Shown: positions 5,169 through 42,004, counted from the first letter of the stretch. The stretch is DNA of 42,178 bases from Candidatus Aenigmatarchaeota archaeon (GCA_030619735.1 JAUXAV010000001.1:1-42178); one strand, 5' to 3'. Translations and numbers: made by a program. The notes: a model not told the origin generated them from the sequence alone.

Positions 5169-7013
5169 TCACACATACTTGTCAAGCCTGAACTCAGGCT
5201 TCTCAAACTCAAAATGCATCTTGTACCAGAGTATAAAGGATACCAAGGTCCAGAACTGCCTGGTATAGTAGCGCCTGCTCCTTTCATAGTTATCTATAAT
5301 TTTCCTGATTTCCTGCCTTTTTAGCAGGTGTTTTGGAGCCGAGTCAAATAACTGCAAAGCAATGTCCCTTAATCCCTCCTGCATCCATTTTTCTGTTGGC
5401 AGGACAAAGCCGGATTTCTTCCTCTTTGCTATCAGCTGAGGCAATCGCTTTGCAACAGCCTTCCTGAACATATATTTGGTTTTCAATCTTCTCAGCTTCA
5501 TGACTGGAGGTATGCTGAAGGCAAAGTCAATGAATCTGCGGTCAAGATATGGGACCCTAGCTTCAATGGCATGGGCCATAGTCATCCGGTCCACCTTCAT
5601 TAAATAATCATTTGGAAGCTGTGTATTGAAGTCTGTGTACATCATGTTCTGTAGCAGGGGATTTTTGGCAGAGAAGAGGGGTTCTATAGTATTTCTTCCT
5701 GTCATGATGTTTCTTGAAAATCTTGTGGAAAAGATTCTTCTCTTTTCATCAGGGGTGAATGTGGATATATAGGAGAGGAATGCATCCACGTCATCTGATT
5801 TCTCCAATTTTTTAAACCTGGAATAGGTTTCTTTAGACATCCTTTTGCTGATTATCTTGGACGTTATCCTGCTTATGGGGGACGGGATTTTTTTATACAT
5901 CCTGCGCATCATCATAACCCTGTACCGGTCATAGCCTCCCAGCATCTCATCCCCTCCATCACCCATCAATGCAACTGTTAGGTGTTTCTTGGTCTCCTGT
6001 GACATTATGTAAAGGGGTATTGCTGCAATATCCACAACAGGGGTGTCCAGATGCCACGTTATCCTGGGGAGAATCTTCAAATCAGCCTGCTCCACTATTA
6101 TCTCCTTGTGGTCTGTCCCCAGGTGCTCTGCTACCATCCTTCCGAACCTGGTCTCATCTGTTGGGTGGCCGAAACCGATGGTGAAGGTCCTGACATCCGG
6201 ATGGACCTGGCTTGCCAGGGCTGCTATGTAGCTTGAGTCCAGGCCGCCGGAGAGGTAAATGCCCAGAGGGACATCTGAGACCAGCCTAAGATTGACGGAT
6301 TCCCTAAGGTTTTCCTCTATCCTTTTCATGCATTCCTTTTTTGACATTTTTCTTGTTTCCAGGCCGGGCTTCCAGTAAATCTTCCTCTGGAGCTTCAGGG
6401 TTTTCAAATTCAGTATGAGGTATTCTGAGGGTAGGAGCATCCTAATACCTTTAAAAAGGGTCCTGGGCGCGAGGGCATACTGGAAGGTGAAAAGCTCGTC
6501 CAAGGCCTTAAGGTCAAGGGGGAATTTCTTGTATTGAAGAAGGGCTTTAATCTCAGAAGCGAAAAGGAATTTCCTGCTAGAAAAATGGTAGTATAGGGGC
6601 TTTATCCCCGCCCTGTCCCTGGCGAGCATGAGGGTTTTTTTATTGGAATCATAAAGGGCAAAAGCGAACATGCCCCTTAGTTTCTTTATGAAGTCAGGGC
6701 CGAGCTCTTCATACAGATGGACCATAACCTCTGTGTCGCTGTTGGAAAAAAAGCTATGCCTGTCCAGTTGTTTTTTCAGCTCCTTGTAGTTGTATATCTC
6801 TCCGTTGCAGATTAGCTGAATGGTTCCGTTTTCATTGGAGAGCGGCTGCCTGGCCTTTCTGGAGAGGTCTATTATGGATAAGCGGTTGTGGCCAAGGGAG
6901 ATGTTTTTGTCTGTGAAAGAGCCAGAATCATCAGGCCCCCTGTGGTTTAGGGATTCCATCATCTTCCTGAGAAGTCCGGGGTCCTCGAAATTGAAGCCTG
7001 TTATGCCGCACAT
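5169..7013 (-). CDS. asnB: Asparagine synthase (glutamine-hydrolysing)-family amidotransferase
   Basis: 614 aa. MCGITG Ntn-Cys2 glutaminase start and the PP-loop YLSGGLDSSYIAALA of the synthetase domain. Sits between two GT4 genes. Confidence 0.85.
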   Translation of the reverse strand: MCGITGFNFEDPGLLRKMMESLNHRGPDDSGSFTDKNISLGHNRLSIIDLSRKARQPLSNENGTIQLICNGEIYNYKELKKQLDRHSFFSNSDTEVMVHLYEELGPDFIKKLRGMFAFALYDSNKKTLMLARDRAGIKPLYYHFSSRKFLFASEIKALLQYKKFPLDLKALDELFTFQYALAPRTLFKGIRMLLPSEYLILNLKTLKLQRKIYWKPGLETRKMSKKECMKRIEENLRESVNLRLVSDVPLGIYLSGGLDSSYIAALASQVHPDVRTFTIGFGHPTDETRFGRMVAEHLGTDHKEIIVEQADLKILPRITWHLDTPVVDIAAIPLYIMSQETKKHLTVALMGDGGDEMLGGYDRYRVMMMRRMYKKIPSPISRITSKIISKRMSKETYSRFKKLEKSDDVDAFLSYISTFTPDEKRRIFSTRFSRNIMTGRNTIEPLFSAKNPLLQNMMYTDFNTQLPNDYLMKVDRMTMAHAIEARVPYLDRRFIDFAFSIPPVMKLRRLKTKYMFRKAVAKRLPQLIAKRKKSGFVLPTEKWMQEGLRDIALQLFDSAPKHLLKRQEIRKIIDNYERSRRYYTRQFWTLVSFILWYKMHFEFEKPEFRLDKYV

Positions 7014-9211: not shown

Positions 9212-9670
9212 CTAGAGGATTTTGTTCGCCTTTATCACTATATCCCTGGGATTAAGACCTGAAACTGATTCAACCTGAATATAAATTTGTTGGGGTTGCC
9301 TTTTATCTTTATCCCATTCCCGAGCGTGTCTAACCACATAGTCTACTGATTTGTCCCTTATGGTCTGTTCTGGGAAAAGCGAGGCATGCACGCCGCCCCA
9401 GACTACCGGCAGGTGAGGGTCCTTCTCCTTCACAATATCAGAGAGCCTCACGCCGTGGGCAATCTGGTCTGACATGGCTGTTATACCCACCATCTCTGTC
9501 TTGTTAATAAGGGATTTGAGAATGGATTCAGAATCCTCTATCTGGGAGTCAAGAATCCTTACCCTATGCCCTGCCCTGTGTAGAACCGTACCCAAATAAA
9601 GAAGGGACATGTAAAGGTTCACGGTTCCCTCCTCGCCCTTGGGGTTTATTATCGTTATATGCATCTGCAT
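9212..9670 (-). pseudogene. N-terminal B12-binding-domain fragment of a radical-SAM paralogue (no CX3CX2C core)
   Basis: The first ~113 residues (LLYLGTVLHRAGHRVRILD...VVWGGVHASLFPEQTI...VDYVV) align with the N-termini of the 490-aa and 500-aa B12-rSAM proteins. After ~9331 similarity is lost, and the ORF ends at 9212 without the Fe-S motif. Confidence 0.65.
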
Positions 9671-9760
9671 CTCCTATTAATCAAATATTAGTTAACTGCT
9701 GCAGAGATGTCTCTTGAAGTGTTACCTGTTTTATTGAGTAACCGGAGACAAGATATGCAG
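9663..9760 (-). repeat. Leader repeat, copy 1: conserved ~95-nt element forming the 5' leader and RBS of the radical-SAM fragment
   Basis: Shares with 28630-28725 the blocks ATATCTTGTCTCC, CAAGAGACATCTCTGCA (plus strand TGCAGAGATGTCTCTTG at 9700-9716) and TTAATAGGAGATGCAGAT directly abutting the ATG. Has an internal GTTAC/GTAAC hairpin at 9721-9742. Confidence 0.8.
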
Positions 9761-13193: not shown

Positions 13194-14666
13194 TTAATTT
13201 TGTTTTAACCTGTTTAGGGTATATACCTTTACAATTTTGTGCATTATTCTGCTGAAAAAGCTGCTCTTATTTGCATACCTTTGCTGCAGCCAGCTGAGCA
13301 TGGGAAGCTCAATGGGAAAGGAAAAATTCCTGTTTGACAATCTCCATTGAGGGATATTGCTTATTATTGGAATATTAAGATGCCTGAGTGCAATTATTTG
13401 GGAATACTTTCTTATCATATAGAAATTCCTTGCCTTCTTTTCGCTGTCCTTGCCAGACATCCATACAGGGTCTATTATGTTTTTCCACCTGTCCAGAAGA
13501 TACCAGTCTTCTGTTCTCTTTGGCTGGTTGAACCCCCTCTTTACAGCCAGGTCATACAAATCTGTTCCGGGGTAAGGCAGATACATGCCGATTGTATATC
13601 CAATCCTCGGATGAATTTCCGATAGCCGTAAAATAATGTCAATTGTCTTTCCGATTTCTTTCCATGTTTCTGTAGGCAAACCTATTAGAAAAGAGGCGCT
13701 GATATAGATATCCTTGTATTCTGACAATGTCTTGATTCCTTCTACAATATCCTTTGTAGTGAACTGTTTATTGATTAATCTTAAGACTTTATCGCTTCCT
13801 GATTCCAGACCGAAAAATAACCCTCTGCACTGTATATTTCTGAATTTATCAAGCATCTGCCTGGATATGTCCTTTATATTTGTGCCAACCTCCCAGGGAA
13901 GGTCTATTGCCGTGAGAATTTCCATTGCCCTTTTCGGATTTGAAAAGAAATTATCATCATAGAATCCTATCCCGTCAATGCCATGTTCATCTTTGAGCCT
14001 TTGTATTTCAGATATAACAAAATCTATTGAATGGGCTCTCCATATTCCCATGTTAAATCTCTTGTTGTAGCAGAATGTGCAGTTGTACGGACACCCTCTT
14101 GATGTTATAAATTTTATAACCCTTTTGCAATCCCATAAAGACAGATAATATTTTTTTATATCCACCAAATCCCAGTCCAGCCTGTAATCATCAAGATTCT
14201 TTATCAAGGGTCTTTGTTCTGTAAAAACCAATTTACCATTCTTTTTATATCCAATGCCCTTTACATCCTTGAAGCCCCTGCCCCTCTCTATTGCCTTTGC
14301 TAGCTCAACTATGGCTTCTTCCCCCTCCCCAGAAATAATGAAATCAATATATTTTTCACCCAGGGTCTGCTCAGGGACCAGAGATGGGTGTATGCCGCCC
14401 CATACTATTGGGATATTGCTTAATTTTCTAATCTCCCTTGACATCTGGGCTGAAAACCTTGTCTGGTTCCCTGTGAATACCGAGATGCCCACAAACAGGG
14501 GGTCCTTTCTAATTATACGCCTGGCACAACTTTCTATCTGGTCTGAGGGGCAATGAAAAACCTGAACATCATAACCTGCCTTTTTCAATGCATCACCCAG
14601 GTACAGCAGACTCAGTGGCGGGATGTTCATGTATTCTGGTGTGCTTATGTTTGTAAGCGCTATCAT
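13194..14666 (-). CDS. B12-binding-domain radical SAM protein (class B type)
   Basis: 490 aa. N-terminal cobalamin-binding-like domain (LLYLGDALKKAGYDVQVF...VWGGIHPS) followed by SRGCPYNCTFC (CX3CX2C). AT-rich: one 60-nt line at 13741 counts 18 G+C. Confidence 0.8.
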   Translation of the reverse strand: MIALTNISTPEYMNIPPLSLLYLGDALKKAGYDVQVFHCPSDQIESCARRIIRKDPLFVGISVFTGNQTRFSAQMSREIRKLSNIPIVWGGIHPSLVPEQTLGEKYIDFIISGEGEEAIVELAKAIERGRGFKDVKGIGYKKNGKLVFTEQRPLIKNLDDYRLDWDLVDIKKYYLSLWDCKRVIKFITSRGCPYNCTFCYNKRFNMGIWRAHSIDFVISEIQRLKDEHGIDGIGFYDDNFFSNPKRAMEILTAIDLPWEVGTNIKDISRQMLDKFRNIQCRGLFFGLESGSDKVLRLINKQFTTKDIVEGIKTLSEYKDIYISASFLIGLPTETWKEIGKTIDIILRLSEIHPRIGYTIGMYLPYPGTDLYDLAVKRGFNQPKRTEDWYLLDRWKNIIDPVWMSGKDSEKKARNFYMIRKYSQIIALRHLNIPIISNIPQWRLSNRNFSFPIELPMLSWLQQRYANKSSFFSRIMHKIVKVYTLNRLKQN

Positions 14667-14913: not shown

Positions 14914-15750
14914 ATGACAGATGATATAATTGGTCTGGTCCCTGCAGCAGGAGAGGGAACAAGGCTCTACCCCTTTGCAAGGGCGGTTCCAAAAGAGATG
15001 TACCCCATCCTGGGCAAGGCCGTGATAGAGCACTGTATAGAGAACCTGAGGGAAGGTGGAGTCAGGAAGATATTCATAATCGTGGGCAGGCAGAAGGGAG
15101 CCTTAATGGACTATATCGGCGATGGCAGTTTTTTCGGTGTCAATGTATCATATATATACCAGCTCAAGAGGATGGGCCTCGGCCATGCAATACTGCAGGG
15201 TAGTGAATGGATTAAGAACCCCTTCGTGGTCCTGCTCGGGGATTCCTTCATAGAGCCCAAGAAGGAGATGAAGGAGCTCATAGACCTCCACAAAAGGGAG
15301 AAGCCCATTGCAACAGTTATGCTTTTTGAGGTTGACAGCCCTAAAGGATACGGTATTGTAAAGCTTTCGGATTTGAAGGACGGATACGGTACTGTTGAAA
15401 AGCTTGTGGAGAAGCCCTCAGATGAGGAGGCAAAGGAATATAGAACTGGAGGCAAATTCTATGCACTGTGCGGCGCATATGCCTTTGAGCCGGAAATATT
15501 CAACTATATCAGGGAAACAAATCCGGGGGCAAAGGGTGAAATCCAGATAACAGACTCCCTGGAGCTTGCAAGAAGGAAGGGGGAAAGTATCTTGGGTTTT
15601 GTGATGAAGGGAAAATATCTGGACATAGGCAACTGGGATAGCGTCCTCAAGACAGAAAAGGAACTGCTCTCCTCTTCTGATGCTGAAAAGCATATAAAAG
15701 AAAGGGAAGAAATGATGGATAAGATAAAAATGAAAGAGAAGGAGGGTTGA
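14914..15750 (+). CDS. UTP-glucose-1-phosphate uridylyltransferase-like sugar nucleotidyltransferase
   Basis: VPAAGEGTRLYPFARAVPKEMYPILGK resembles the GalU AAGxGTRxLPxTKxxPKEMLPI signature. GGAGG Shine-Dalgarno sequence ~9 nt upstream of the ATG. Confidence 0.7.
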   Translation: MTDDIIGLVPAAGEGTRLYPFARAVPKEMYPILGKAVIEHCIENLREGGVRKIFIIVGRQKGALMDYIGDGSFFGVNVSYIYQLKRMGLGHAILQGSEWIKNPFVVLLGDSFIEPKKEMKELIDLHKREKPIATVMLFEVDSPKGYGIVKLSDLKDGYGTVEKLVEKPSDEEAKEYRTGGKFYALCGAYAFEPEIFNYIRETNPGAKGEIQITDSLELARRKGESILGFVMKGKYLDIGNWDSVLKTEKELLSSSDAEKHIKEREEMMDKIKMKEKEG

Positions 15751-24783: not shown

Positions 24784-26286
24784 CTATTTTTCTATCCTTT
24801 CCTTAAGGGCGCCCCTTACCTTTTCCGCGAATATGTATTCAAATGGGAATGAGAAGAATCGGTGCTTCCATCTTGCGGCTGCAGTTGGCCTGAAGATTCT
24901 CATGAAGAGGCTGTAAATGGATTTTGTCTGCTTCCAGAGTATATATTCTGAATCCGAGCCGTGGAGTAGGAAGTTGGAGTACATGATGGCCTTATAAAAC
25001 CACATATTATCAAGGTAGTTGTATTCCATTTCCTCCCTGAATCTCCCCCAGTCCTCAAGCCTCTGGGGAGATTTCCATCCCATTTGAACCACCCGATTGA
25101 ACAGCTCACTTCCTGGGTATGGAGCAAAGAGGGAGACAGCGTGCGCTATCTTGGGGTTGATTTTGTTTATAGCATCTATCAATCTTACGGTTTTAATGGC
25201 ATCGGCCTTTGTCTCTCCTGGTATCCCCACCATCCAAGAATACTTGGCGCCGATTCCGTATTCCGTGGAAAGCCTTGCAGAATCCAGTATCTGTTCCAGT
25301 GTTATGTCCTTGTGGATGAGGTCAAGTATCCTCTGTGAGCCAGATTCTGCACCAAAGGCAACATGATGGCATTCAGTATCCTTAAGGCTCTGGAAGAGGC
25401 TGTCTGTTTTATGGACATCCACCCGGAATCCGTCCTCTATTGCCCATACAAGGCCAAGGTCCTTGAAGAGTTCCCCTATCTTCACTATCCTTTTCTCAGG
25501 GCCCATGAAGGCATCGTCAATAACTATTCTTTTGACCCCGGCCTTTACCAAAGGCTGAATCTCCCTTTCTATTTTCTTGGGGCCCCAGGCGCGGTAAATC
25601 CTTTTCGTGCAGAGGAGATTCCAGCAGAATGAACACCTGAAGGGGCACCCCTTGCTGGTTATGATATGTATGGTCTTTAGGCCGCCGGAGTCAAAGATGT
25701 ATCTTTTGAGATTAATCAGGTCCAGGGCCATTGAAACCTCCTTGTCCCAGTCCCTTATAATGGGCCTATCTTCTGTATGCACTGGTTTGCCGTTGCGCTT
25801 AAAGGTAAGGCCCTTAACCGAGCTGATATCCCTACTGTCCTTCAGGGCGTCCGCCAGCTCCACAGATGTTATCTCCCCCTCCCCTCTGCAGACTATGTCG
25901 ATGTTGGGGTTTATTACTGTCTGCTCTGGCAGGATATCCGGATGCGGCCCGCCCCAGACTATTTTTGTGTCCGGACTTGCCTGCTTTATGAACCTTGAGA
26001 GCTCAATTGCATCCAGTATGATAGGTCCTGTGAAAATCGTGAATCCCACGAAAAGTATCCTGTTCTCGCGGAGCGCCTTCACCAGGTCCTTTCGGTCATC
26101 CAGCCTGTCGTCAAAAATAAGCACCCTGTATCCGGCCCTGCGCAGGCTTGATGCTAAGAAAAGCGGGCCGTAAGGCAGGTTTACTATCTTGTACGGAGAG
26201 ACAATGTTTGGCTGTATCAGGATTATGTCCACCTTTGATGGACAGCTGTTGCCCTTAGGCAACATTATGTCATATTTTCCTTTCAT
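24784..26286 (-). CDS. B12-binding-domain radical SAM protein (class B type)
   Basis: 500 aa. LFLASSLRRAGYRVLIFD...VWGGPHPD cobalamin-domain-like N-terminus and TSKGCPFRCSFC (CX3CX2C). Last gene of a long minus-strand operon. Confidence 0.8.
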   Translation of the reverse strand: MKGKYDIMLPKGNSCPSKVDIILIQPNIVSPYKIVNLPYGPLFLASSLRRAGYRVLIFDDRLDDRKDLVKALRENRILFVGFTIFTGPIILDAIELSRFIKQASPDTKIVWGGPHPDILPEQTVINPNIDIVCRGEGEITSVELADALKDSRDISSVKGLTFKRNGKPVHTEDRPIIRDWDKEVSMALDLINLKRYIFDSGGLKTIHIITSKGCPFRCSFCWNLLCTKRIYRAWGPKKIEREIQPLVKAGVKRIVIDDAFMGPEKRIVKIGELFKDLGLVWAIEDGFRVDVHKTDSLFQSLKDTECHHVAFGAESGSQRILDLIHKDITLEQILDSARLSTEYGIGAKYSWMVGIPGETKADAIKTVRLIDAINKINPKIAHAVSLFAPYPGSELFNRVVQMGWKSPQRLEDWGRFREEMEYNYLDNMWFYKAIMYSNFLLHGSDSEYILWKQTKSIYSLFMRIFRPTAAARWKHRFFSFPFEYIFAEKVRGALKERIEK

Positions 26287-26322: not shown

Positions 26323-27504
26323 CTAAGCCACCCTTCTATAGACCTTCATTATGTCAAGGGAGACCCTTGCCCATGAATAGTCTTTGATTGCCTTCTCCCT
26401 GCAGGCCCTTCCGAGCTTCTTTATCCTTTTTTCATCATTAAGGAGGCCTGCAAGCATTTCTGCAAACTCATGGAAATCCTGTGCACTGGCATAGACACCG
26501 AGGTTTCCGAGTATGTGCCTGTTTACTGGATAGTCAAAAACCACGCTCGGGATTCCCATTGCCATGTAATTATAAACCTTTTCATTGCCCTCACCAGAGG
26601 TGATTATCTTTGGTGAAACCCCCACATGCGCCAGGGAAAGGTATCTGGGGATGTCAAAATAGCTTACCTTGCCTGTGAAGGTGATGTTATCCTGCACCCC
26701 GAGCCTCCTTGCCATCCTTGAGTAGTGCTCGATATTCGGGAAGCCTATTATAAGGAAGTGTGTTTCAGGTGCCTCCTTCAGCACTTCGGGTATGGAGCCT
26801 ATAAGACCGTCGATTCCCTGATAGGGATGGAGCGTGCCTATGTATGTGACAACCCTCCTTCCCTGGGGGATTGAAACCCTTTTCCTGATATTGCCTGGCT
26901 TCACATCCGGGGAGAAGATATCCGTGTCAACACCGTCACCTATAACCGTGACCCTTTCCTGGTCTATCCCGAAATCTTCCGTCAGGACCTTTGCGTTCTG
27001 GTTGGAGCTTGTTATTATCTCGTCTGCACGGCGGTTCAGCATCCCCTCGATGCGATGCCAGAATCTGTAAGAAGTGCTGCCCTTTCTTAGGAAGTGCTTT
27101 GCCAGCATCTCCCCTGTGAGCGAGCCTTCGGCATCAAATACAATGGGCCTCCTTCTGAAGAGCCGGAGCAGACTCCCGACAGCAACCCCTTCATGCAGAA
27201 AGGCGTGTATTATATCATAGTCCCTCTCTAAGAACCTCTTTAGTGCAATAGAGGATAAGAGCACATCCAGATAAATCTTATGGAAATTGGCACCCACGGC
27301 TGTGCTTCTATACCATGGGATGCTGGGTATCCTTTTAATCTCAATGCCCTTTATATTCCTGCCCAGATGGTATGCAAAAACCGTGACCCTGTTGCCGAGC
27401 TTCTGGAGTGACCTTACCTCTTCCAATACGCGGATGGGGGTTCCTCTGTCCTCAAAGAAGGGGACAGGAGATATGTTTGCAATCCTGTACATAGTTATAA
27501 ACAC
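26323..27504 (-). CDS. Glycosyltransferase, GT4-like (GT-B fold)
   Basis: 393 aa. Two-Rossmann GT-B layout. Divergent C-terminal motif SGEGNEKVYNYMAMGIPSVV in the glycos_transf_1 position. Confidence 0.65.
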   Translation of the reverse strand: MFITMYRIANISPVPFFEDRGTPIRVLEEVRSLQKLGNRVTVFAYHLGRNIKGIEIKRIPSIPWYRSTAVGANFHKIYLDVLLSSIALKRFLERDYDIIHAFLHEGVAVGSLLRLFRRRPIVFDAEGSLTGEMLAKHFLRKGSTSYRFWHRIEGMLNRRADEIITSSNQNAKVLTEDFGIDQERVTVIGDGVDTDIFSPDVKPGNIRKRVSIPQGRRVVTYIGTLHPYQGIDGLIGSIPEVLKEAPETHFLIIGFPNIEHYSRMARRLGVQDNITFTGKVSYFDIPRYLSLAHVGVSPKIITSGEGNEKVYNYMAMGIPSVVFDYPVNRHILGNLGVYASAQDFHEFAEMLAGLLNDEKRIKKLGRACREKAIKDYSWARVSLDIMKVYRRVA

Positions 27505-27507
27505 ACA

Positions 27508-28629
27508 TTAAAGATTAAAAAAGGATTTTACACCAGAAATCACCCTGTCAATATCCTCCTGCTTCATGTCCGGGTAAAGCGGGAGTGTTACCAGCCTTTT
27601 CCATATCCTGTCCGCAACAGGCACATCTGCAGGAACATTGCTGTATATCTTGTGCATGTGAAGAGGGAGATAGTGGACGCTTGTTGATATCCCCAGTTTC
27701 TGCATATGCTCCATAAATCTGTCCCTATTTTCTATTTTGGCAACGTAGTTGTGATGCGAGCTTTCGGCATATTCCTTTACCACAGGGGTCTCTATGCCGT
27801 TTATATCAGCAAATGCCTCGTTATATATCTTTGTAATCTCTTTTCTGCGCCTGTTGGTTTCTTTGAGCCTCTCCAGCTGGGCGATTCCAAGGGCCGCGAT
27901 TATGTCGTTCATATGGCTCTTGAATCCCAATTCCTTTACCTCATAGCGCCAGGAATAGGAGGCCTTGCCTGAACGCTGGTGCGTGCTCTTGTCAATGCCG
28001 AACCATCTGAGAAGCTTTGCCCTTTCAGCAACCTCGGGTATGTTCGTGGTAAGCATGCCCCCGTCGCCAGTGGTCAGGTTCTTAACTGCATGGAAGCTGA
28101 AGCAGCCTGCATCGCCAAGGGAGCCGGCGGGTTTTCCCTTGTAAAGGGAGCCGCAGGCATGAGCAGCATCTTCTATAACCCTTATCCCCCTGTCCCGGGC
28201 TGTCTCAAGTATCTCATCCATCTCTACTGGATGCCCCCCGTAGTGCACCACTATTATTGCCTTTGTTTTTTCAGTTATCTTCCTCTTCACGTCCTCAACA
28301 TCTATGTTGAGGGTGTCCTCCCTTATATCAGCAAAAACCGGTTTTGCATTGCAGTAATTGGCCACCAGGGCAGTGGAAATGAATGTGATTGCAGGGACAA
28401 TGACCTCCCCTGAGTTTATATTGAATGCCGCAAGCGCTAGGTGCATTGCGGCTGTTCCTGAGTTGAGGCCCACTGCGTATTTTGTCCGGCAGAAATCGCT
28501 GAACCTGCTCTCAAATTCCCTTGTCTTGGGGCCGAAGGTTATCCAGCCTGAGCGGAGCACATCTGTTACGTACTCTATCTCCTTTTCTGTCATGGAGGGC
28601 TTGAAAACAGGTATTATCTTTTTATCCAT
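27508..28629 (-). CDS. DegT/DnrJ/EryC1/StrS-family PLP-dependent sugar aminotransferase
   Basis: LNSGTAAMHLAL, IEDAAHA and SFHAVKNLTTGDGG (Schiff-base Lys). Confidence 0.85.
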   Translation of the reverse strand: MDKKIIPVFKPSMTEKEIEYVTDVLRSGWITFGPKTREFESRFSDFCRTKYAVGLNSGTAAMHLALAAFNINSGEVIVPAITFISTALVANYCNAKPVFADIREDTLNIDVEDVKRKITEKTKAIIVVHYGGHPVEMDEILETARDRGIRVIEDAAHACGSLYKGKPAGSLGDAGCFSFHAVKNLTTGDGGMLTTNIPEVAERAKLLRWFGIDKSTHQRSGKASYSWRYEVKELGFKSHMNDIIAALGIAQLERLKETNRRRKEITKIYNEAFADINGIETPVVKEYAESSHHNYVAKIENRDRFMEHMQKLGISTSVHYLPLHMHKIYSNVPADVPVADRIWKRLVTLPLYPDMKQEDIDRVISGVKSFFNL

Positions 28630-28725
28630 ATCTGCATCTCCTATTAACTAAGTGCATAGTTAAACTATGCAGAGATGTCTCTTGCACCGTTAACCAATAA
28701 TATTGGTTGACTGGAGACAAGATAT
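28630..28725 (-). repeat. Leader repeat, copy 2: fills the whole cupin-to-aminotransferase intercistronic spacer
   Basis: TGCAGAGATGTCTCTTG at 28668-28684. A near-perfect 11-bp palindromic hairpin at 28689-28699 / 28701-28711. GGAGACAAGATAT at 28713-28725. AATAGGAGATGCAGAT lies directly before the ATG at 28629. Confidence 0.8.
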
Positions 28726-29121
28726 TCACCCTTTTTTCACGCTCCATTTGTATGCGTCAGGGTTTTCAGGATTGTACGGCAGGGTGGTGTAGATGAAGAG
28801 CACGGCATCCCTGTCCCCGATGTTTTCAATTGCATGGCCAATACTGGGGTCCACCCGGACTGTTATAGGCTTCTCCCCGCTCATTCTCATCCTTTCCTTT
28901 CCCAGGTAAAACATGACCTCCCCGGAGAAGATAGTAAAGAATTCTGTCTGCCTTTTATGGTAGTGAAGGCCCTTTGTTTTGCCTGGCTTGATAACGATAA
29001 GGTAATTCTGGCCAAAATCCTTTACTCCCTTCATAATTTCTGAATCAGAACGCAGGGTTTCCATTACTATGCCATTGTCATCAGTTACAACCTTCACCTT
29101 CTTTTTCATCATCTCAATCAT
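28726..29121 (-). CDS. RmlC-like cupin (sugar-nucleotide isomerase/epimerase-like)
   Basis: 131 aa. KGLHYHKRQTEFFTIFSGEV..., then HAIEN...LFIYTTLPYNPENPD. Small cupin barrel of the WxcM/FdtA/RmlC type. Specific activity not assignable. Confidence 0.55.
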   Translation of the reverse strand: MIEMMKKKVKVVTDDNGIVMETLRSDSEIMKGVKDFGQNYLIVIKPGKTKGLHYHKRQTEFFTIFSGEVMFYLGKERMRMSGEKPITVRVDPSIGHAIENIGDRDAVLFIYTTLPYNPENPDAYKWSVKKG

Positions 29122-30134
29122 CCCTCTTCAACAAACCATTCCTTTGCCCTCTTAAGCCCTTCGTCAAAGCTTATCTTCGGTTCCCAGCCCAGGGTCTCCC
29201 TTATTTTGGTAGTGTCCGGGCATCTCCTGTTCGGATCGTCCTTTGGAAGGGGCTTGTGCTCAATCTCAACGTCCCCGAAGAGCCCGACTATCTTTTCAGC
29301 CACATCCTTCATGGCCACCTCCTCACTCCCGCCTATATTGAAAAACTGCCTGGATGCCTCTTTCTTCAGTGAAACGTCCAGTACTCCCCTGAGCGCATCC
29401 GAAAGATAGAGGAAGGCCCTTGTTTGCTTTCCGTTGCCGTAGAGGGTTATCTTTTTCTCCTTCTTGGCGTTGACCAGCCAGTTTGCAATCACCTTTCCGT
29501 GGGGGTAGCCGAAGCTCTGCCTCGGACCGAATATGTTGAAGAACCTCAGTATGCGGAAGTCGACCCCGTGCTGGCGGTCGAATGCATGGATTATGGCCTC
29601 TGCAGCACGCTTGCCCTCATCATAGGTGGAGCGCGGGCCTGTGCAGGAAACATTGCCCCTGTAGGTCTCCGGGGTGGGCACCACCGTAGGGTCACCGTAT
29701 ATCTCTGAGCTGCTCGGGAAAAAGAAGGTTGAGTTCCATTCATGGGCTTTTTTCAGGAGCGCGTGGGTGCCAAGTATATTGGTCAGGAATATATCAACAC
29801 CATATTTGAGGAAGGCACCTGGGGCATTGACGCTGGCCAGATGGTAGATGATGTCAAATCCGGAAAGTCCTTCTGGTATCTTGCCGCTCCGGAGGTCCCA
29901 TTTTATGAGCTTGAAATTGCTGTTGCCTGCAAGGTGCTCTATGTTCCTTGGGGGGCCGCTGGAGAAGTTGTCCAGGCACACCACCTCGTTTCCTGTCTTG
30001 ATAAAGAAGTCGCACAGGGAGCTGCCTATGAATCCGGCGCCGCCTGTGATAAGGATTTTCTTGCTGCTTATCTCTGGGGAGTTCTTTATTACATTTTCTA
30101 TGTCTTCCCGGAGTATCCTGTTCATGGAAATCAC
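29118..30134 (-). CDS. UXS/ArnA-C-terminal-like NAD-dependent sugar-nucleotide decarboxylase/dehydratase (second paralogue)
   Basis: ILITGGAGFIGSSL and PSSSEIYGDPTVVPTPETYRGNVSCTGPRSTYDEGKRAAEAI. Same signature block as uxs but diverged. Confidence 0.7.
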   Translation of the reverse strand: MISMNRILREDIENVIKNSPEISSKKILITGGAGFIGSSLCDFFIKTGNEVVCLDNFSSGPPRNIEHLAGNSNFKLIKWDLRSGKIPEGLSGFDIIYHLASVNAPGAFLKYGVDIFLTNILGTHALLKKAHEWNSTFFFPSSSEIYGDPTVVPTPETYRGNVSCTGPRSTYDEGKRAAEAIIHAFDRQHGVDFRILRFFNIFGPRQSFGYPHGKVIANWLVNAKKEKKITLYGNGKQTRAFLYLSDALRGVLDVSLKKEASRQFFNIGGSEEVAMKDVAEKIVGLFGDVEIEHKPLPKDDPNRRCPDTTKIRETLGWEPKISFDEGLKRAKEWFVEEG

Positions 30135-30156
30135 TTAAGATATTTATTATAACTAT

Positions 30157-30786
30157 TTAAATCTTAATTTCACCAGTTTCTGACTGGTTGTTGAGATTAG
30201 TGACCCTACGCCTGCGGGTCATTCTGCGGTAGCATCTGTATGGAATATATGCTAATAGCTTTATAAGGCAAAGGGACAGGCGGCCCCTAAGATTGAAGGC
30301 TATCATCATCAGATAGTTGTCACCGCCATCAGAGCATACACAGAAGCCATGCTTTTTGTAAAGATGGATGGCTGCCTGGTTTTTTTTCCACACGGCCGCA
30401 CAGATATAGGGGTATTTTTCCCTCCCTATTCTTGTTATTTTTTTCAGCAACCTGCTGCCAATGCCCTTGTTGCGGAACCCGGGAAGGACAGCAATAAACA
30501 GTGATAATACGCCACTAGCTTTCTTGATTCCGGCAAGCCCAAGGATGGTGCTGCCTTTTTTTATGTCTGCATCTCTCCTTTTGAACTGTAATGCAGAGAT
30601 GTCTCTTGAACTATTAACCAATTTACTCTGTTCATTGAAAACAAGAAACACGATTTCCTTGTTTTTTGATACATCATGCCTTAAGGCGCTCTGTATTCTT
30701 TTGTCCTCCCCCTTCAGTCCCCTGAAGAAATGCTCCATTGCCGGCGTCATACAAACACTTATATTTATTGCAATATTTAAATTCAT
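30157..30786 (-). CDS. GNAT-family N-acetyltransferase carrying an internal repeat-derived segment and an odd basic tail
   Basis: FIAVLPGFRNKGIGSRLLKK...NQAAIHLYKKHGF is the acetyl-CoA-binding core. Residues ~58-78 (NSSRDISALQFKRRDADIKK) are encoded by leader-repeat copy 3. A ~45-aa Arg-rich tail follows the normal GNAT end. Confidence 0.65.
   Translation of the reverse strand: MNLNIAINISVCMTPAMEHFFRGLKGEDKRIQSALRHDVSKNKEIVFLVFNEQSKLVNSSRDISALQFKRRDADIKKGSTILGLAGIKKASGVLSLFIAVLPGFRNKGIGSRLLKKITRIGREKYPYICAAVWKKNQAAIHLYKKHGFCVCSDGGDNYLMMIAFNLRGRLSLCLIKLLAYIPYRCYRRMTRRRRVTNLNNQSETGEIKI
30565..30650 (-). repeat. Leader repeat, copy 3 (shortened, hairpin lost), embedded in-frame in the GNAT ORF
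   Basis: TGCAGAGATGTCTCTTG at 30592-30608 is identical to copies 1 and 2. GTCTGCATCTCTCCT at 30565-30579 corresponds to ATCTGCATCTCCT of the other copies. ATA occupies the position of their ATG. Confidence 0.7.
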
Positions 30787-31502
30787 TCTTTTACATTCCT
30801 AGCTATTATCAGAACATGGATGGGCTTGAACTGGTGGATTATTGAGTCAAGCATGAAGAAGGGCTTGAGGAGCTGGAACGCTATTCTGTATAATAGGAAT
30901 TTCCTGGAGGATTTAAGCTTCCTTAGATTGGAGTCCGACATTTTTCTTTTGAAGAGTTTGTAGTATGGCCTGAGTGTTGAGCCGAACTCTATTGTCCTTG
31001 TTGCAGTGAATCCTGCCTGGGCAAGCTTCAACATTAGCCGAAAGGTTGTGTATCGCCTCCTGTGCCCCACAGCCTTATCCACTTCTGACCACATCCCCAT
31101 ATCAAGGGGAACTGACACCACCAAGGTTCCGCCAGGCTTGAGGACCCTGTTCGCCTCTTGTAGTGCCTTTTTATCATTGTCCAGATGCTCCAAGGTGTCA
31201 ATCAGTAGTGTGTTATCAAAGGAGTCGTTCTCAAAGGGGAGGCTCTCCGCCGTGCCGTGGTACCCCCTGTTGCCTGTCTCCCTCCTGTAAACCTCAAGTA
31301 TCCTTTCATCTATGTCCAAGCCCGTTACCTCCCCGCTTACCATCCTAGACTTCTCGCCTATCCAACAGCCTATGTCAAGGGTTGAGCCTTCCAGCTTCCC
31401 CAATACCTTGCTGAATAGCCTTGCCTTTATGTAGGCTTCTGGGCCTCTCTGGCCTGTCAGCAGTTCGTACCTGTCTGACATCCCTTTGTGGGCTTCAATC
31501 AT
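30783..31502 (-). CDS. Class I SAM-dependent methyltransferase
   Basis: 239 aa. TLDIGCWIGEKS (motif I), FDNTLLIDTLEHL and LKPGGTLVVSVP. ATGA overlaps on both sides indicate translational coupling. Confidence 0.8.
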   Translation of the reverse strand: MIEAHKGMSDRYELLTGQRGPEAYIKARLFSKVLGKLEGSTLDIGCWIGEKSRMVSGEVTGLDIDERILEVYRRETGNRGYHGTAESLPFENDSFDNTLLIDTLEHLDNDKKALQEANRVLKPGGTLVVSVPLDMGMWSEVDKAVGHRRRYTTFRLMLKLAQAGFTATRTIEFGSTLRPYYKLFKRKMSDSNLRKLKSSRKFLLYRIAFQLLKPFFMLDSIIHQFKPIHVLIIARNVKE

Positions 31503-31825
31503 GCTTCTGCCTCCAGCTTGTATATGATTAAAACCACCTGCCCGTTATTGTAAATCTGCTTCACCCTTTCGTATCTCGCATCGCTTTCCAGTTCCTCGTA
31601 TGAGACCATGGAGGGCACTAGGGGCGGCCTGTGTGTGAAGTCATAGGTACATATCCCTGGCTCCCCGTACCTCCCTTCCAGGATGCTCTTTCCCATGAAG
31701 AGGTAGATTGTCTCGTCAGGGTTTATGGAATTCAGGTCCATTAGAGTGAATATCATGATTGTGGTGAAGAGGCAGAGTAGGAAAATGAACAGGAATTCAT
31801 ACCTGGTGGTTTCTGCGCTTTTCAT
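31499..31825 (-). pseudogene. In-frame collapsed GT-C paralogue: N-terminal ~75 aa fused to C-terminal ~33 aa (108-aa single-TM mini-ORF)
   Basis: LMDLNSINPDETIYLFMGKSILEGRY...YDFTHRPPLVPSMVS aligns with FMDLNSLSPDETNYIFVGKSILIGEYPDDFTHRLPFIPSIIS of the 534-aa protein. YEELESDARYERVKQIYNNGQVVLIIYKLEAEA aligns with its tail YNEIENDSRFKKAKEIYRDEQRIFIIYEVSQ. The ORF is intact and overlaps the next gene, so it may still be translated. Confidence 0.7.
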
Positions 31826-33310: not shown

Positions 33311-34396
33311 ATGAAGGGTCTGATACTCGCAGGTGGCTTGGGAACAAGGCTGAGGCCGCTTACATACAGCGGTTCCAAGCAGCTGATACCTGTGGCGAAT
33401 AAGCCTGTGCTGTTCTACGGAATCGAGGACCTGAAGGAGGCAGGAATAAGGGACATAGGAATAATCGTGGGCTACACCGATGAAAGGGTACAGTTCATTA
33501 AGGATGCTGTGGGGGACGGCTCAAGATGGGGGGTGAAGATTACATACATAAGGCAGGACGCACCAAGGGGTCTGGCCCATGCGGTTACAACAGCAAGGGA
33601 TTTTATAGGGGGTGATGATTTTGTTGTTTATCTGGGGGACAATATACTGAACAAGGGGATAAGCAGCTTTGCTGAGGAATTCAGAAATTCGGATATGGAT
33701 GCAAGCATACTGGTCACGCAGGTGGAGCACCCGGAGATATATGGAGTGGCCATGATTGGCGATAACAGAGAGATAATAGAGATTGAGGAAAAGCCGGAGA
33801 ATCCCAAGAGCAACTATGCGATTGTCGGTGTTTATTTTTTCAGGTCCTCTATCTTTGAGGCAATCAAGAAGATAAAGCCAGGGAAAGGGGGCGAACTGGA
33901 ACTAACAGATGCCATCCATGAGCTGGTTGTTTCAGATAAGCACAGGGTGAATGCCCATGTTGTGAAGGGCTGGTGGGATGATACAGGAACAGCTGAGGCA
34001 GTGCTCCGTGCCAATCACCTCGTTTTGACCGATTTGAAAGCGAAGCGAGAGGGCATTGTAGAGGAGGGAGTGCGGCTCATTGGGAATGTGGCTCTAGGTA
34101 AGAATACGATTATTAAAGCGGGAACCTTGATACGTGGTCCGGTTATTATTGGGAAGGATTGCCAAATTGGACCAACATACTTGGGTCCATATACCTCCAT
34201 CGGGGATAACTGCGTCATCCGAGGTGGAGAGATTGAGTCATCAATTATCATTGGCGATACACACATCAATTTGGAAGCTAATAAACGGATTGTTGATAGC
34301 TTGATAGGGCGGCATACTATTATCAATTCGGCGAGAGAAACTTTGCCCAGCGGCTGCAAACTTGTCCTCGGTGAGAACTCGGAGGTACAAATATAG
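33311..34396 (+). CDS. rmlA: Glucose-1-phosphate thymidylyltransferase, long form with C-terminal left-handed beta-helix; chimeric codon usage
   Basis: MKGLILAGGLGTRLRPLTYSGSKQLIPVANKP plus hexapeptide-repeat C-terminus. The first 12 Arg codons are all AGG/AGA. Of the last 8, from codon 233 (34007) on, 7 are CGN. Confidence 0.8.
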   Translation: MKGLILAGGLGTRLRPLTYSGSKQLIPVANKPVLFYGIEDLKEAGIRDIGIIVGYTDERVQFIKDAVGDGSRWGVKITYIRQDAPRGLAHAVTTARDFIGGDDFVVYLGDNILNKGISSFAEEFRNSDMDASILVTQVEHPEIYGVAMIGDNREIIEIEEKPENPKSNYAIVGVYFFRSSIFEAIKKIKPGKGGELELTDAIHELVVSDKHRVNAHVVKGWWDDTGTAEAVLRANHLVLTDLKAKREGIVEEGVRLIGNVALGKNTIIKAGTLIRGPVIIGKDCQIGPTYLGPYTSIGDNCVIRGGEIESSIIIGDTHINLEANKRIVDSLIGRHTIINSARETLPSGCKLVLGENSEVQI

Positions 34397-40339: not shown

Positions 40340-40624
40340 CTATGGCTGGTCCGGATTCTGCGACAGGAGAAATCTTCTTATCAGGAGGTAGGCAAGGATG
40401 GTGCCGATTATGTATGCTATTATCATGGAGATTATTGTGCCGTAGAGGCCATGGAACTGTATCAGAAACCAGGCAGTTACTGTATTGATTGAAACCGTTA
40501 TAATCTCGGACAGGGAGCTTATTTTCACCCCTGATATGCCAAAGGATGCTGCAAACCACATGTATATGTTATGCACCATTGCTATCAGGCCTGCCAGTAC
40601 AAACAGCATAAGCATGGGAGAAAA
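40340..40624 (-). pseudogene. Orphan duplicated 3' end (~91 codons) of a Wzx-type flippase gene
   Basis: MLMLFVLAGLIAMVHNIYMWFAASFGISGVKISSLS...GLYGTIISMIIAYIIGT parallels the last ~91 residues of the adjacent flippase (MLLLFVFAGLITSVHLLYIWFAASFGIRGVKISSLS...GLYGAILSMIISYTIGT), roughly 60 percent identical by eye. An in-frame stop lies immediately upstream. Confidence 0.75.
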
Positions 40625-40687: not shown

Positions 40688-42004
40688 TTATTCTATAAAC
40701 CCTTCCTCCTCTGGAGAAAACACAGACCTTATCCTAAAGTAGATATAGAGTGTGCCGATTGTATAGGATATTATCATGGATAGTATGGCCCCGTAAAGAC
40801 CGTATGATGGTATTAGCAACAGGGCTGTTATTATGTTTGCTATACATATTATTCCCACTGATAGGGAGCTTATCTTTACGCCTCTTATCCCAAAGGATGC
40901 AGCAAACCATATATAGAGCAAGTGCACTGATGTTATAAGGCCAGCAAATACAAAGAGAAGGAGCATGGGGATTATGAAGGTATAATCACTGCCATAGAGG
41001 AAGAGTACAATAGAGGACATGACAAAAAGCAATATATAGAATATTGGGGAGAATTTTAGGAGCTTGTTCATTTGGGAGAAGATTATGGCCTTCTTTCTGT
41101 ACATGGAGGATATGGGGAAAAAGACCATTACGAATCCGGTCACAAAGAACGATGCTACTGTGAGTGTGGAATAGTAGTAGGCCTGGTACATACCCACATC
41201 ACCTATTGAAAGGAAGATGTTAAGGAATATCTTGTTTAATGCACCTATGGTGGAGAGTGATATGGTTCCCAGGATGGCTATAAGGCTATATTTCATCAGG
41301 ATCTTTGACCATTTTCTGCTCAGCACCGGCCTGAGGTATTTCCTGATGTCCGGCCATGTAGGAGCTGCTGCAAGCAGATAGCCTATTATTACGGATATTA
41401 TGGGTATTATTGCTGTTCTTGTGTAGAGGTAAAGGATAATGCTTATAATCAGCACGGAAAGGCTCCATACAACATTCAGCGCTCCGAGCTTTTTCATCTT
41501 GTTCATGCCCTGGCATACCTTCTGGGCAAGGGTCCATATGTTCATGCCAACAGCCATTACTATGGCTGCAAACATATAGGGAAGGTTTATAGAAAAGGCT
41601 GTGGCAAGGGGCACGGAGAGGAGATAAAACAATAGTGCGAATATGATGGTTGATACAGCCATCAGTATAACGCTTGTGGATAGTATCTTTGCTTTGTCCC
41701 TTTCACTCCTTGTAGATGTAAAGTATTTCACCATGGCCGTGCCTATGGAGAGATACATAAATGTCCATAGTATATTTGATATGGAACAGACAAGGGCAAA
41801 CCTCCCGTACTCTATCCTGCCAAGTAGCCTGCCGCTCATTATCTGAAAGAGGAGGGAAAAGACCTTTGAGAGCATAAGGCCAGAGAAGACAAAGCCCAGG
41901 CCCTTTATGAAATTCCTGGTGACTGGCCCAGGCTTTTTTCTGAATATCAGGGCATAGAAAAAGAAAACAATTACCCAGAATAATTTCTTTAATTTTTCCA
42001 ACAT
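40688..42004 (-). CDS. wzx: Oligo/polysaccharide flippase, MOP superfamily (Wzx-like)
   Basis: 438 aa, ~12 hydrophobic segments. SGRLLGRIEYGRFALV near the N-terminus is typical of polysaccharide-biosynthesis (Wzx/RfbX) proteins. Confidence 0.75.
   Translation of the reverse strand: MLEKLKKLFWVIVFFFYALIFRKKPGPVTRNFIKGLGFVFSGLMLSKVFSLLFQIMSGRLLGRIEYGRFALVCSISNILWTFMYLSIGTAMVKYFTSTRSERDKAKILSTSVILMAVSTIIFALLFYLLSVPLATAFSINLPYMFAAIVMAVGMNIWTLAQKVCQGMNKMKKLGALNVVWSLSVLIISIILYLYTRTAIIPIISVIIGYLLAAAPTWPDIRKYLRPVLSRKWSKILMKYSLIAILGTISLSTIGALNKIFLNIFLSIGDVGMYQAYYYSTLTVASFFVTGFVMVFFPISSMYRKKAIIFSQMNKLLKFSPIFYILLFVMSSIVLFLYGSDYTFIIPMLLLFVFAGLITSVHLLYIWFAASFGIRGVKISSLSVGIICIANIITALLLIPSYGLYGAILSMIISYTIGTLYIYFRIRSVFSPEEEGFIE

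Follow-up and report, generated by a model that had tools for sequence, protein, structure and literature searches.

The 42,178-nt window analyzed here, which is the whole stretch of DNA under study, comes from a Candidatus Aenigmatarchaeota archaeon and carries on its minus strand a cupin/sugar-isomerase-like gene (28726-29121, assigned by a Pfam scan) followed by a DegT/DnrJ/EryC1 aminotransferase gene (27508-28629, Pfam E-value 1.9e-121); the spacer between the two is filled by a structured repeat, and this repeat, its copies and its likely nature are our subject. The spacer described in the initial annotation of the window is exact: the cupin open reading frame (ORF) ends at 28726, the DegT ORF starts at 28629, and the 96 nt of 28630-28725 lie between them. 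The successive gaps in the co-directional gene string 26323-31825 are 3, 96, -4, 22, -4 and -4 nt, the 96-nt gap being the repeat copy, here called copy A; in the two nearest DegT operons, DegT abuts or overlaps the preceding gene.

Three copies in the window

Copy A (28631-28722, minus strand), together with 1-3 flanking bases, makes up the whole spacer and consists of two hairpins, H1 and H2, joined by the dinucleotide GA. H1 (28680-28722, minus strand) is closed by a foot in which TCTTG (28722-28718) pairs with CAAGA (28684-28680), and its loop holds an inner near-perfect palindrome at 28689-28711. H2 (28631-28677, minus strand) pairs a 5' arm CATCTCTGCA (28677-28668) with a 3' arm GAGATGCAGA (28640-28631), and holds an inner hairpin at 28653-28671. 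The GA linker at the H1/H2 junction (28678-28679, minus strand) is the centre of the palindrome AGAGA-CA-TCTCT to which the initial annotation drew attention; the palindrome is exact in all three window copies described below, but it is not a unit in its own right, since it is composed of the 3' arm of H1, the GA and the 5' arm of H2.

Copy A folds far more stably than shuffled sequences, as RNA (z -4.7 and -6.0 for the two strands) and as DNA (z -4.9 and -6.5), and DNA energy parameters return exactly the two-hairpin shape plus an inner hairpin in each loop; the folding of the other two copies, B and C, is not significant (z about -1.4 to -1.8).

A covariance model, R1, built from a 35-sequence alignment (A2) and run with filters off over the whole window, returns copies A, B and C only. 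Copy A scores 24.4 bits (E-value 1.3e-4). Copy B (9664-9753, minus strand; 23.9 bits, E-value 1.8e-4), for which earlier bounds were 9663-9760, shows 80% mean column identity to copy A over the extended region (MAFFT) with the same block order, and lies upstream of a B12-binding ORF (9212-9670, minus strand) that has possible start codons at 9670 and 9664. The variable hairpin that had been described as kept in position between A and B is present in both, but it is an extension within the H1 loop; it measures 5 bp in B and 10 bp with one mismatch in A, with no compensatory changes between the two. The inner hairpins of A and B descend from one ancestral hairpin, and the compensatory evidence comes from the wider family rather than from this pair.

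The recurrence of the module had been noted for A and B, which holds, but the best-scoring module in the window, copy C (30564-30648, minus strand; 37.8 bits, E-value 9e-8), had been missed; it was recognised because the third match to the 17-mer TGCAGAGATGTCTCTTG lies there. The window has three occurrences of this 17-mer where 0.10 would be expected, a number that none of 100 shuffles reaches, and two of the gene-proximal 18-mer ATCTGCATCTCCTATTAA where 0.13 would be expected. Copy C is in frame within a GNAT acetyltransferase gene (30157-30786, minus strand; Pfam Acetyltransf_1 at residues 75-148), where it covers residues about 47-75. An A-rich ATAAAAAG-like tail follows all three copies.

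A family of GA-joined hairpins

A search pattern drawn from the gene-proximal half of the module, GACATCTCTGCA N5-35 GAGATGCAGA, matches at least 80 metagenome-contig loci (here given L numbers); for its 22 fixed bases we estimate a few chance matches, in a metagenome database of unstated size. Nearly all of these matches carry TCGTGTC-loop-GACACGA and then GA directly upstream, in sequence that was not part of the search, and the unit is therefore H1-GA-H2: an H1 of the form TCNTGTC...GACAN'GA, the GA linker, and H2 as in copy A, with a minimal length of about 47-70 nt and a family majority core CACGAGACATCTCTGCA. Loops vary from 3 to about 30 nt and are free in sequence and length, while the stems are conserved; all 88 distinct aligned copies have the same GA linker, and at many loci two to five H1-type hairpins stand in tandem, GA-joined, with H2 last. 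Among the matches listed, R1 finds 142 in 452 kb (89 loci), many of which do not fit the search pattern and are therefore free of its ascertainment bias.

The genome search for the 17-mer that had been proposed was carried out and returned 36 matches, about chance level, only L008 and L011/L022 sharing flanks with the window copies; L011 and L022 are the ends of two contigs of one Aenigmatarchaeota metagenome-assembled genome (MAG). The 17-mer belongs to the minority CAAGA variant, and the taxonomic range therefore rests on few records.

Both hairpins vary by compensation. The majority foot of H1 is TCGTG/CACGA, the TCTTG/CAAGA of the window copies is a compensatory variant of it, and other copies have TCATG/CATGA; H2 occurs as TCTGCA/TGCAGA, TCTTCA/TGAAGA, TCAGCA/TGCTGA, TCATCA/TGATGA and TCTGCG/CGCAGA, the last four among matches that lie outside the search pattern. 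In the covariance check, the stems pair in 93% of cells, and 14 of the 16 base pairs show changes at both partners; double-change cells number 119 against 17.8 in shuffles in the model-fitted alignment, and the covariation score is 0.207 against 0.005-0.026 with slid partners. The initial annotation had taken the structure to be selected rather than a product of drift, and the retention of both hairpins in more than 100 copies with many compensatory changes bears this out; the prospect it had also raised, that relatives might hold neither further copies nor covariation, did not materialise, further copies being many and covarying.

The covariation extends to two pairing registers. In H1, bases 3 and 10 of the 5' arm and a single 3' base form the triples GGC (44), TTA (6), AAT (3) and CCG (1), and in H2 two 5' positions and one 3' base form AAT (83) and GGC (5). 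In each hairpin, covariation thus maintains two pairing registers that exclude one another (alignment A4). At locus L044, the ViennaRNA minimum-energy and centroid folds use different registers.

By a crude ORF rule and among the matches listed, 65 of 80 copies lie between genes. Module and downstream gene are co-oriented in 30 cases and opposed in 15, module and upstream gene co-oriented in 24 and opposed in 18; many copies sit just before or just after genes, and copies also occur between convergent genes or antisense to both neighbours. The genes themselves are diverse: among 327 flanking ORFs the largest cluster has three members, and the flanks include RadA, RPA/DUF2240, a secretion ATPase, a DHH phosphoesterase, an M50 peptidase, a histone, a toxin, a transposase and a tRNA. 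R1 matches in places fall at contig ends or are clustered in alternating orientation. Clusters of three to four alternating modules within 200-350 nt, reminiscent of bacterial interspersed mosaic elements (BIMEs), are found at L074 (3291-3478), L081 (28-354) and L046 (2233-2512), and the ORFs between inverted module pairs at L112 and L046 yield no informative domains except an AbiEii toxin.

RadA, RPA, an archaeal histone, an intron-containing tRNA and the record names place the hosts in the Archaea near Aenigmatarchaeota. The tRNA gene in question, at L040 (2778-2932, minus strand), spans 155 nt, which implies an intron and fits an archaeal host. The window itself contributes only glycan-biosynthesis genes, free of taxonomic markers in Pfam scans, and a tRNA/tmRNA scan of it found none; the GC fraction is 0.45 in the window and has a median of 0.41 in the fetched loci. 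In viral contigs the H2 pattern has no match and the majority 17-mer has two chance-level matches of at most 20.5 bits. We found no description of the family in the literature searched by topic and by sequence strings, the latter returning only unrelated primers; ISfinder-type catalogues lay outside that search.

Other recurrent pieces, GGCAACAGCTGTTGAACC and (C/A)TGCATCCATCCACTGTTTGAAA, adjoin modules at L011/L022, L037, L046, L081 and L093, and suggest that these genomes hold a mosaic of several small repeat types.

Insertion sites and neighbouring genes

Copy C lies where the relatives of its host gene have no counterpart. In a HMMER search against 1.84 billion representatives, GNAT relatives of 160-180 aa align at their own positions about 42-155 with residues about 76-190 of the query; in a multiple alignment the query carries about 29 extra residues, and a profile-profile comparison equates query 75-177 with profile 41-143, an offset of 34. 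Homology restarts exactly at the 3' end of copy C, giving an insert of about 28-34 in-frame residues. The AlphaFold model has a mean pLDDT (predicted local distance difference test) of 75.8, a confident core from residue 81, and values below 50 at residues 56-77. Because homology restarts at the module end and pLDDT is low there, copy C adds in frame a probably disordered, probable surface loop to the modelled protein, which is the only member of its 90% cluster.

Modules also interrupt mobile elements. At L045, and at the related L061 and L109, an IS1595 transposase gene is split into two ORFs in different frames (994-1458 and 630-1160 in L045), one matching Pfam DDE_Tnp_IS1595 positions 2-46 and the other 43-153, with a module at the break (1011-1072 in L045). 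L044 (695-1370) and L107 (493-1174) hold an IS200-like insertion sequence (IS) of about 680 bp, which encodes a 142-aa Y1 transposase with HUH and Tyr motifs; a hairpin marks the element's left end, a second one (GCGGGG/CCCCGC) is internal, and the right end reads CCCCCG...CGGGGGAGGATGTCAC. The 5' region of this element holds two modules in antisense orientation, both lacking from related IS copies; one of the two, 47-51 nt long and consisting of exactly H1-GA-H2, occupies the loop of the GCGGGG...CCCCGC hairpin. Comparison of filled and empty sites reveals no target duplication at either insertion. Homologues of the IS200-like transposase are common (148 were followed), two of them bearing the name of an Aenigmarchaeota or archaeon IS200/IS605 transposase. 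Contigs with relatives of the element are mostly shorter than 2 kb, as expected for a multi-copy IS.

In 40% of copies the two flanks of a module are complementary to one another for 7 nt or more, against 12% when flanks are permuted, several of the pairs being locus-specific; taken with the module in the IS200-like hairpin loop, this points to a preference for loops of palindromes already present. The first of the two bases before H1 is G in 34, T in 30, A in 15 and C in 9 copies, and the second A in 31, T in 23, G in 20 and C in 14; the dinucleotide that most often precedes the module is GA (13 of 35), and the module is usually followed by T or C, the exactly mapped sites numbering two.

Two candidate empty sites were set aside. 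The DegT homologues are too distant from copy A's neighbour (62%) and differ in gene order, and they show only tight packing. The RPA-radA spacer of L105, compared with L011, is suggestive only, since it also holds other sequence. In that spacer, beside the module, L105 has a Cys-X-X-Cys-rich ORF of about 43 codons at 6281-6410; at the orthologous Aenigmatarchaeota locus, L011, RPA and radA abut without a spacer.

Insertion can touch the genes next to it. Within 28627-28641 (minus strand) a GGAG (28641-28638) shares three bases with the H2 3' arm, at whose 5' edge it lies, and is followed by the DegT ATG (28629-27). In copies A and B the H2 3' arm reads GGAGATGCAGAT with the start codon next after it, and we conclude on this ground that the Shine-Dalgarno-like GGAG comes from the element; in the predicted RNA and DNA folds of copy A it is paired. 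The first five DegT codons, MDKKI (28615-28629, minus strand), place MDKK ahead of a MIPVF-type start: the protein begins MDKKIIPVFKPS, and 7 of the 11 nearest homologues begin MIPVF.PS. These additional codons lie next to the module and are similar to the A-rich tail of the three window copies, so that DegT may owe a new start codon and four codons to the element. Inserted between the cupin stop and the DegT start, copy A now provides GGAG and probably a new ATG, and the stem around GGAG and ATG could dampen DegT translation. Such side effects on aminotransferase expression are plausible; any effect on glycan-gene expression is a by-product of insertion and not the reason for the sequence.

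Behind copy B, the ORF at 9212-9670 (152 aa) has a B12-binding domain only, while its paralogues (13194-14666 and 24784-26286) and its relatives at L133 and L134 reach 486-508 aa and include a radical-SAM domain; the ORF looks like a truncated radical-SAM gene.

Two further repeated pairs occur in the window. Segments 40498-40618 and 40849-40969 form a direct repeat of 121 nt, 73% identical and spaced by 351 nt, near or in the 5' part of a polysaccharide-biosynthesis ORF (40688-42004) and the ORF 40340-40615. Segments 14932-15087 and 33317-33472 are 73-74% identical with equal spacing and lie at the starts of the ORFs 14914-15750 and 33311-34396; they are probably paralogous genes and not a repeat element.

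Mobile DNA, host use or regulation

The copies are very likely a small, non-autonomous mobile DNA repeat, uncatalogued and similar to repetitive extragenic palindromic sequences (REPs) or MITEs (miniature inverted-repeat transposable elements), of Aenigmatarchaeota-like archaea. Movement would most likely be carried by single-stranded DNA, read as hairpins by an enzyme supplied in trans. Copies are dispersed in large numbers through these genomes and have landed in intergenic spacers, in loops of palindromes that were already there and sometimes in coding sequence. The combination of conserved stems with free loops fits protein recognition of hairpins, most simply on single-stranded DNA. Selected RNA normally shows an excess of G.U over A.C mismatches; H1 has 14 G.T and 15 A.C mismatches and no excess of the G.U type. 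Because of this, because the two strands of copy A fold equally well, and because there is no Rfam match, we favour DNA over RNA. The mobilising enzyme is possibly of the Y1/HUH type, as for REPs or IS200/IS605-derived elements, a suggestion that we make tentatively. IS200/IS605 transposases work through pairing between guide and cleavage site, and the two-register covariation of H1 and H2 would resemble it.

Several observations weigh against a mobile repeat. No mobilising enzyme was identified; R1 finds no module at 16 loci with homologous Y1 transposases, and the end hairpins of the IS200-like element, GGCGGAAGAAATCT...AGATGAATTCCCGT and CCCCCGCATTTATGCGGGGG, are unlike H1 and H2. The Y1 transposase of L044/L107 was considered as the cognate partner and rejected, the modules there being nested insertions, and it is retained only as an indication of enzyme type. 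Copies A and B have no DNA-level empty site, since no close relative of this contig turned up: the best DegT homologue is 62% identical, and exact look-ups of two window proteins returned no contig that encodes them. A and B are moreover atypical, with long loops and only about 24 bits. Pair counts come from an alignment that was fitted to R1 and leans to the model, although the slid controls and the raw listings agree with it, and the gene calls in the fetched loci follow the crude ORF rule. Finally, the 2:1 orientation bias toward the downstream gene and the cores that are almost the same in hosts whose proteins share only 43-74% identity could both reflect some host use.

A mobile origin could have been followed by retention for an RNA or DNA job in the host, as transcript stabilisation or termination or as a two-register switch; stabilisation or termination of transcripts has been described for some bacterial REPs. 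The orientation bias and the near-identical cores would suit such a job, as would the many copies that adjoin genes and the covariation of both alternative registers. We nevertheless regard it as unlikely, because wobble pairs are not in excess, copies disrupt genes, recognition by a transposase explains the conservation of the stems equally well, and the search pattern itself selected identical cores.

Somewhat less likely still is the reading put forward in the initial annotation, in which the module is a cis-regulatory RNA leader common to glycan-modification genes and coordinating them, as a riboswitch, a processing site or a translational switch. In its favour, a start codon comes directly after copies A and B on the gene strand, the predicted folds place GGAG in a stem, the stems covary, and co-orientation with the downstream gene is twice as frequent as opposition to it. 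Against this, copy C is within coding sequence; other copies lie between convergent genes, antisense to both neighbours, in transposase genes and in IS; the flanking genes are functionally unrelated; and the stems are kept while loops and junctions vary, which is the opposite of ligand-binding RNAs. A G.U excess and an Rfam match are likewise missing: the Rfam comparison that had been advised gave no match at gathering score in the window, and at 16 loci Rfam 15 gave one tRNA only at gathering score and sub-threshold noise at a permissive setting (E up to 5). With unrelated neighbours, all orientations, and copies in coding sequence and in mobile elements, the proposal of a glycan-gene leader, switch or operator finds no support.

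That AGAGA-CA-TCTCT might be a double-stranded operator for a dimeric regulator is highly improbable: the 5+2+5 palindrome is without mismatch in each of the window copies, and some family variants have it as a perfect GAGACGTCTC, but its halves belong to two different hairpins and pair with flanking arms, not with each other, the compensating change falls in the flanking arm (GTCTC upstream, GAGAT downstream), and the motif stands in hundreds of unrelated contexts, coding sequence included. That the copies are decayed fragments of GNAT-type coding sequence, an outcome the initial annotation had named as fatal to its reading, is hardly credible: copy C translates in frame as FLVFNEQSKLVNSSRDISALQFKRRDAD and copy A in the same frame as YLVSSQPILLVNGARDISA*, but GNAT relatives are without the segment, the module is found at over 100 non-coding sites and, in another frame, in the IS1595 transposase, it is a hairpin pair with compensatory changes, and copy C is an insertion and not the repeat's source.

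Other assignments were also discarded. For the in-frame copy, inspection by eye found no 3-4-3 bulge-helix-bulge of an archaeal intron at the boundaries. The GTCAAC...GTTAAC of copy A does not, by eye, fit the RYYYAAC/GTTRRRY of attC sites, and the copies are scattered rather than in cassette arrays; Pfam scans of the neighbours, which were not a search aimed at integrases, contained no integrase. Spacing and motifs do not fit a CRISPR repeat or a C/D-box small RNA.

Among known repeats, REPs are short imperfect palindromes in many copies, mostly intergenic with occasional in-frame genic copies (PMC6006769, PMC3733652). Like REPs, BIMEs and REPINs (REP doublets forming hairpins), the family consists of high-copy short palindromes, single or clustered, with subfamilies that differ by compensatory stem changes in one genome, and those elements are likewise thought to act as single-stranded DNA hairpins, without target duplication. 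The GTAG/GTGG tag of REPs is, however, not at the H1 foot in the aligned copies, and whereas a REPIN is an inverted doublet of the same REP, here two different hairpins are joined in direct order by GA; inverted module clusters exist (L046, L074, L081) and are not the rule. In the loci examined we found no single-copy Y1 gene flanked by repeats that would correspond to the REP-associated tyrosine transposases (RAYTs), and the REP-associated Y1 classes have been described from bacteria (PMC6006769), whereas the hosts here are archaea. CGTC-REPs, known from five bacterial phyla, have a CGTC (or TGTC/CCTC) tag, an 8-9 bp stem starting with A/T, a 4-5 nt loop and a CCA tail (PMC3733652); with these, which include Rickettsia palindromic elements (RPE), the family shares small palindromes that have no dedicated transposase and are in some cases tolerated in frame in genes (PMC3733652), but stems, loops and tails differ, and here each unit has two hairpins.

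The family resembles MITE-like derivatives of IS200/IS605 in being non-autonomous, in its one-strand hairpins, in lacking terminal inverted repeats and target-site duplications, and in its archaeal hosts, whose lineage also contains IS200/IS605 transposases. The haloarchaeal palindrome-associated transposable elements (PATEs) are derivatives of this kind. The module differs from such elements in that the ends of the co-resident IS200-like element are unlike H1 and H2, and in that we found no tnpB or omega-RNA context and detected no conserved target tetranucleotide. With classical MITEs it shares small size, lack of coding capacity, multiple copies, a mostly intergenic position and the ability to alter neighbours; unlike them, its unit ends, TCGTGTC... 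and ...GATGCAGA, are not mutually inverted, the complementary flanks are locus-specific, and there is no direct duplication at the two precisely mapped sites. Pneumococcal BOX elements are modular, and their own mobility and mechanism are unresolved. The mosaic build of the present units, a variable number of H1-type hairpins and then a fixed terminal module, with further recurrent pieces alongside, resembles that of BOX, but sequence and hosts are unrelated. A prokaryotic MITE census reports high densities in some DPANN archaea and gives no sequences against which those here could be compared (PMC11602168).

It is conceivable, if rather improbable, that the family represents an undescribed archaeal class of structure-specific mobile elements, made of two different hairpins, free of terminal repeats and target duplications, and integrating in hairpin loops. 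If so, the two registers could reflect the guide/cleavage-site pairing rule of a new HUH-type enzyme, an archaeal counterpart of REP/RAYT, or a two-state switch used by the host.

Together, these results make the family a mark of mobile DNA in little-studied archaea, seen across many metagenome projects and not in Rfam. Its modules matter for annotation: they break assemblies at contig ends and lengthen or split proteins, as at the GNAT protein, the DegT N-terminus and the IS1595 transposase. They can also pass for regulatory motifs, and the glycan genes of the window are not to be assumed to be co-regulated through the repeat. The hairpin rules, the invariant GA, the two registers and the loop preference offer a concrete substrate with which to hunt for the enzyme, and with it to take up the question of whether archaea have a REP/RAYT-like system.

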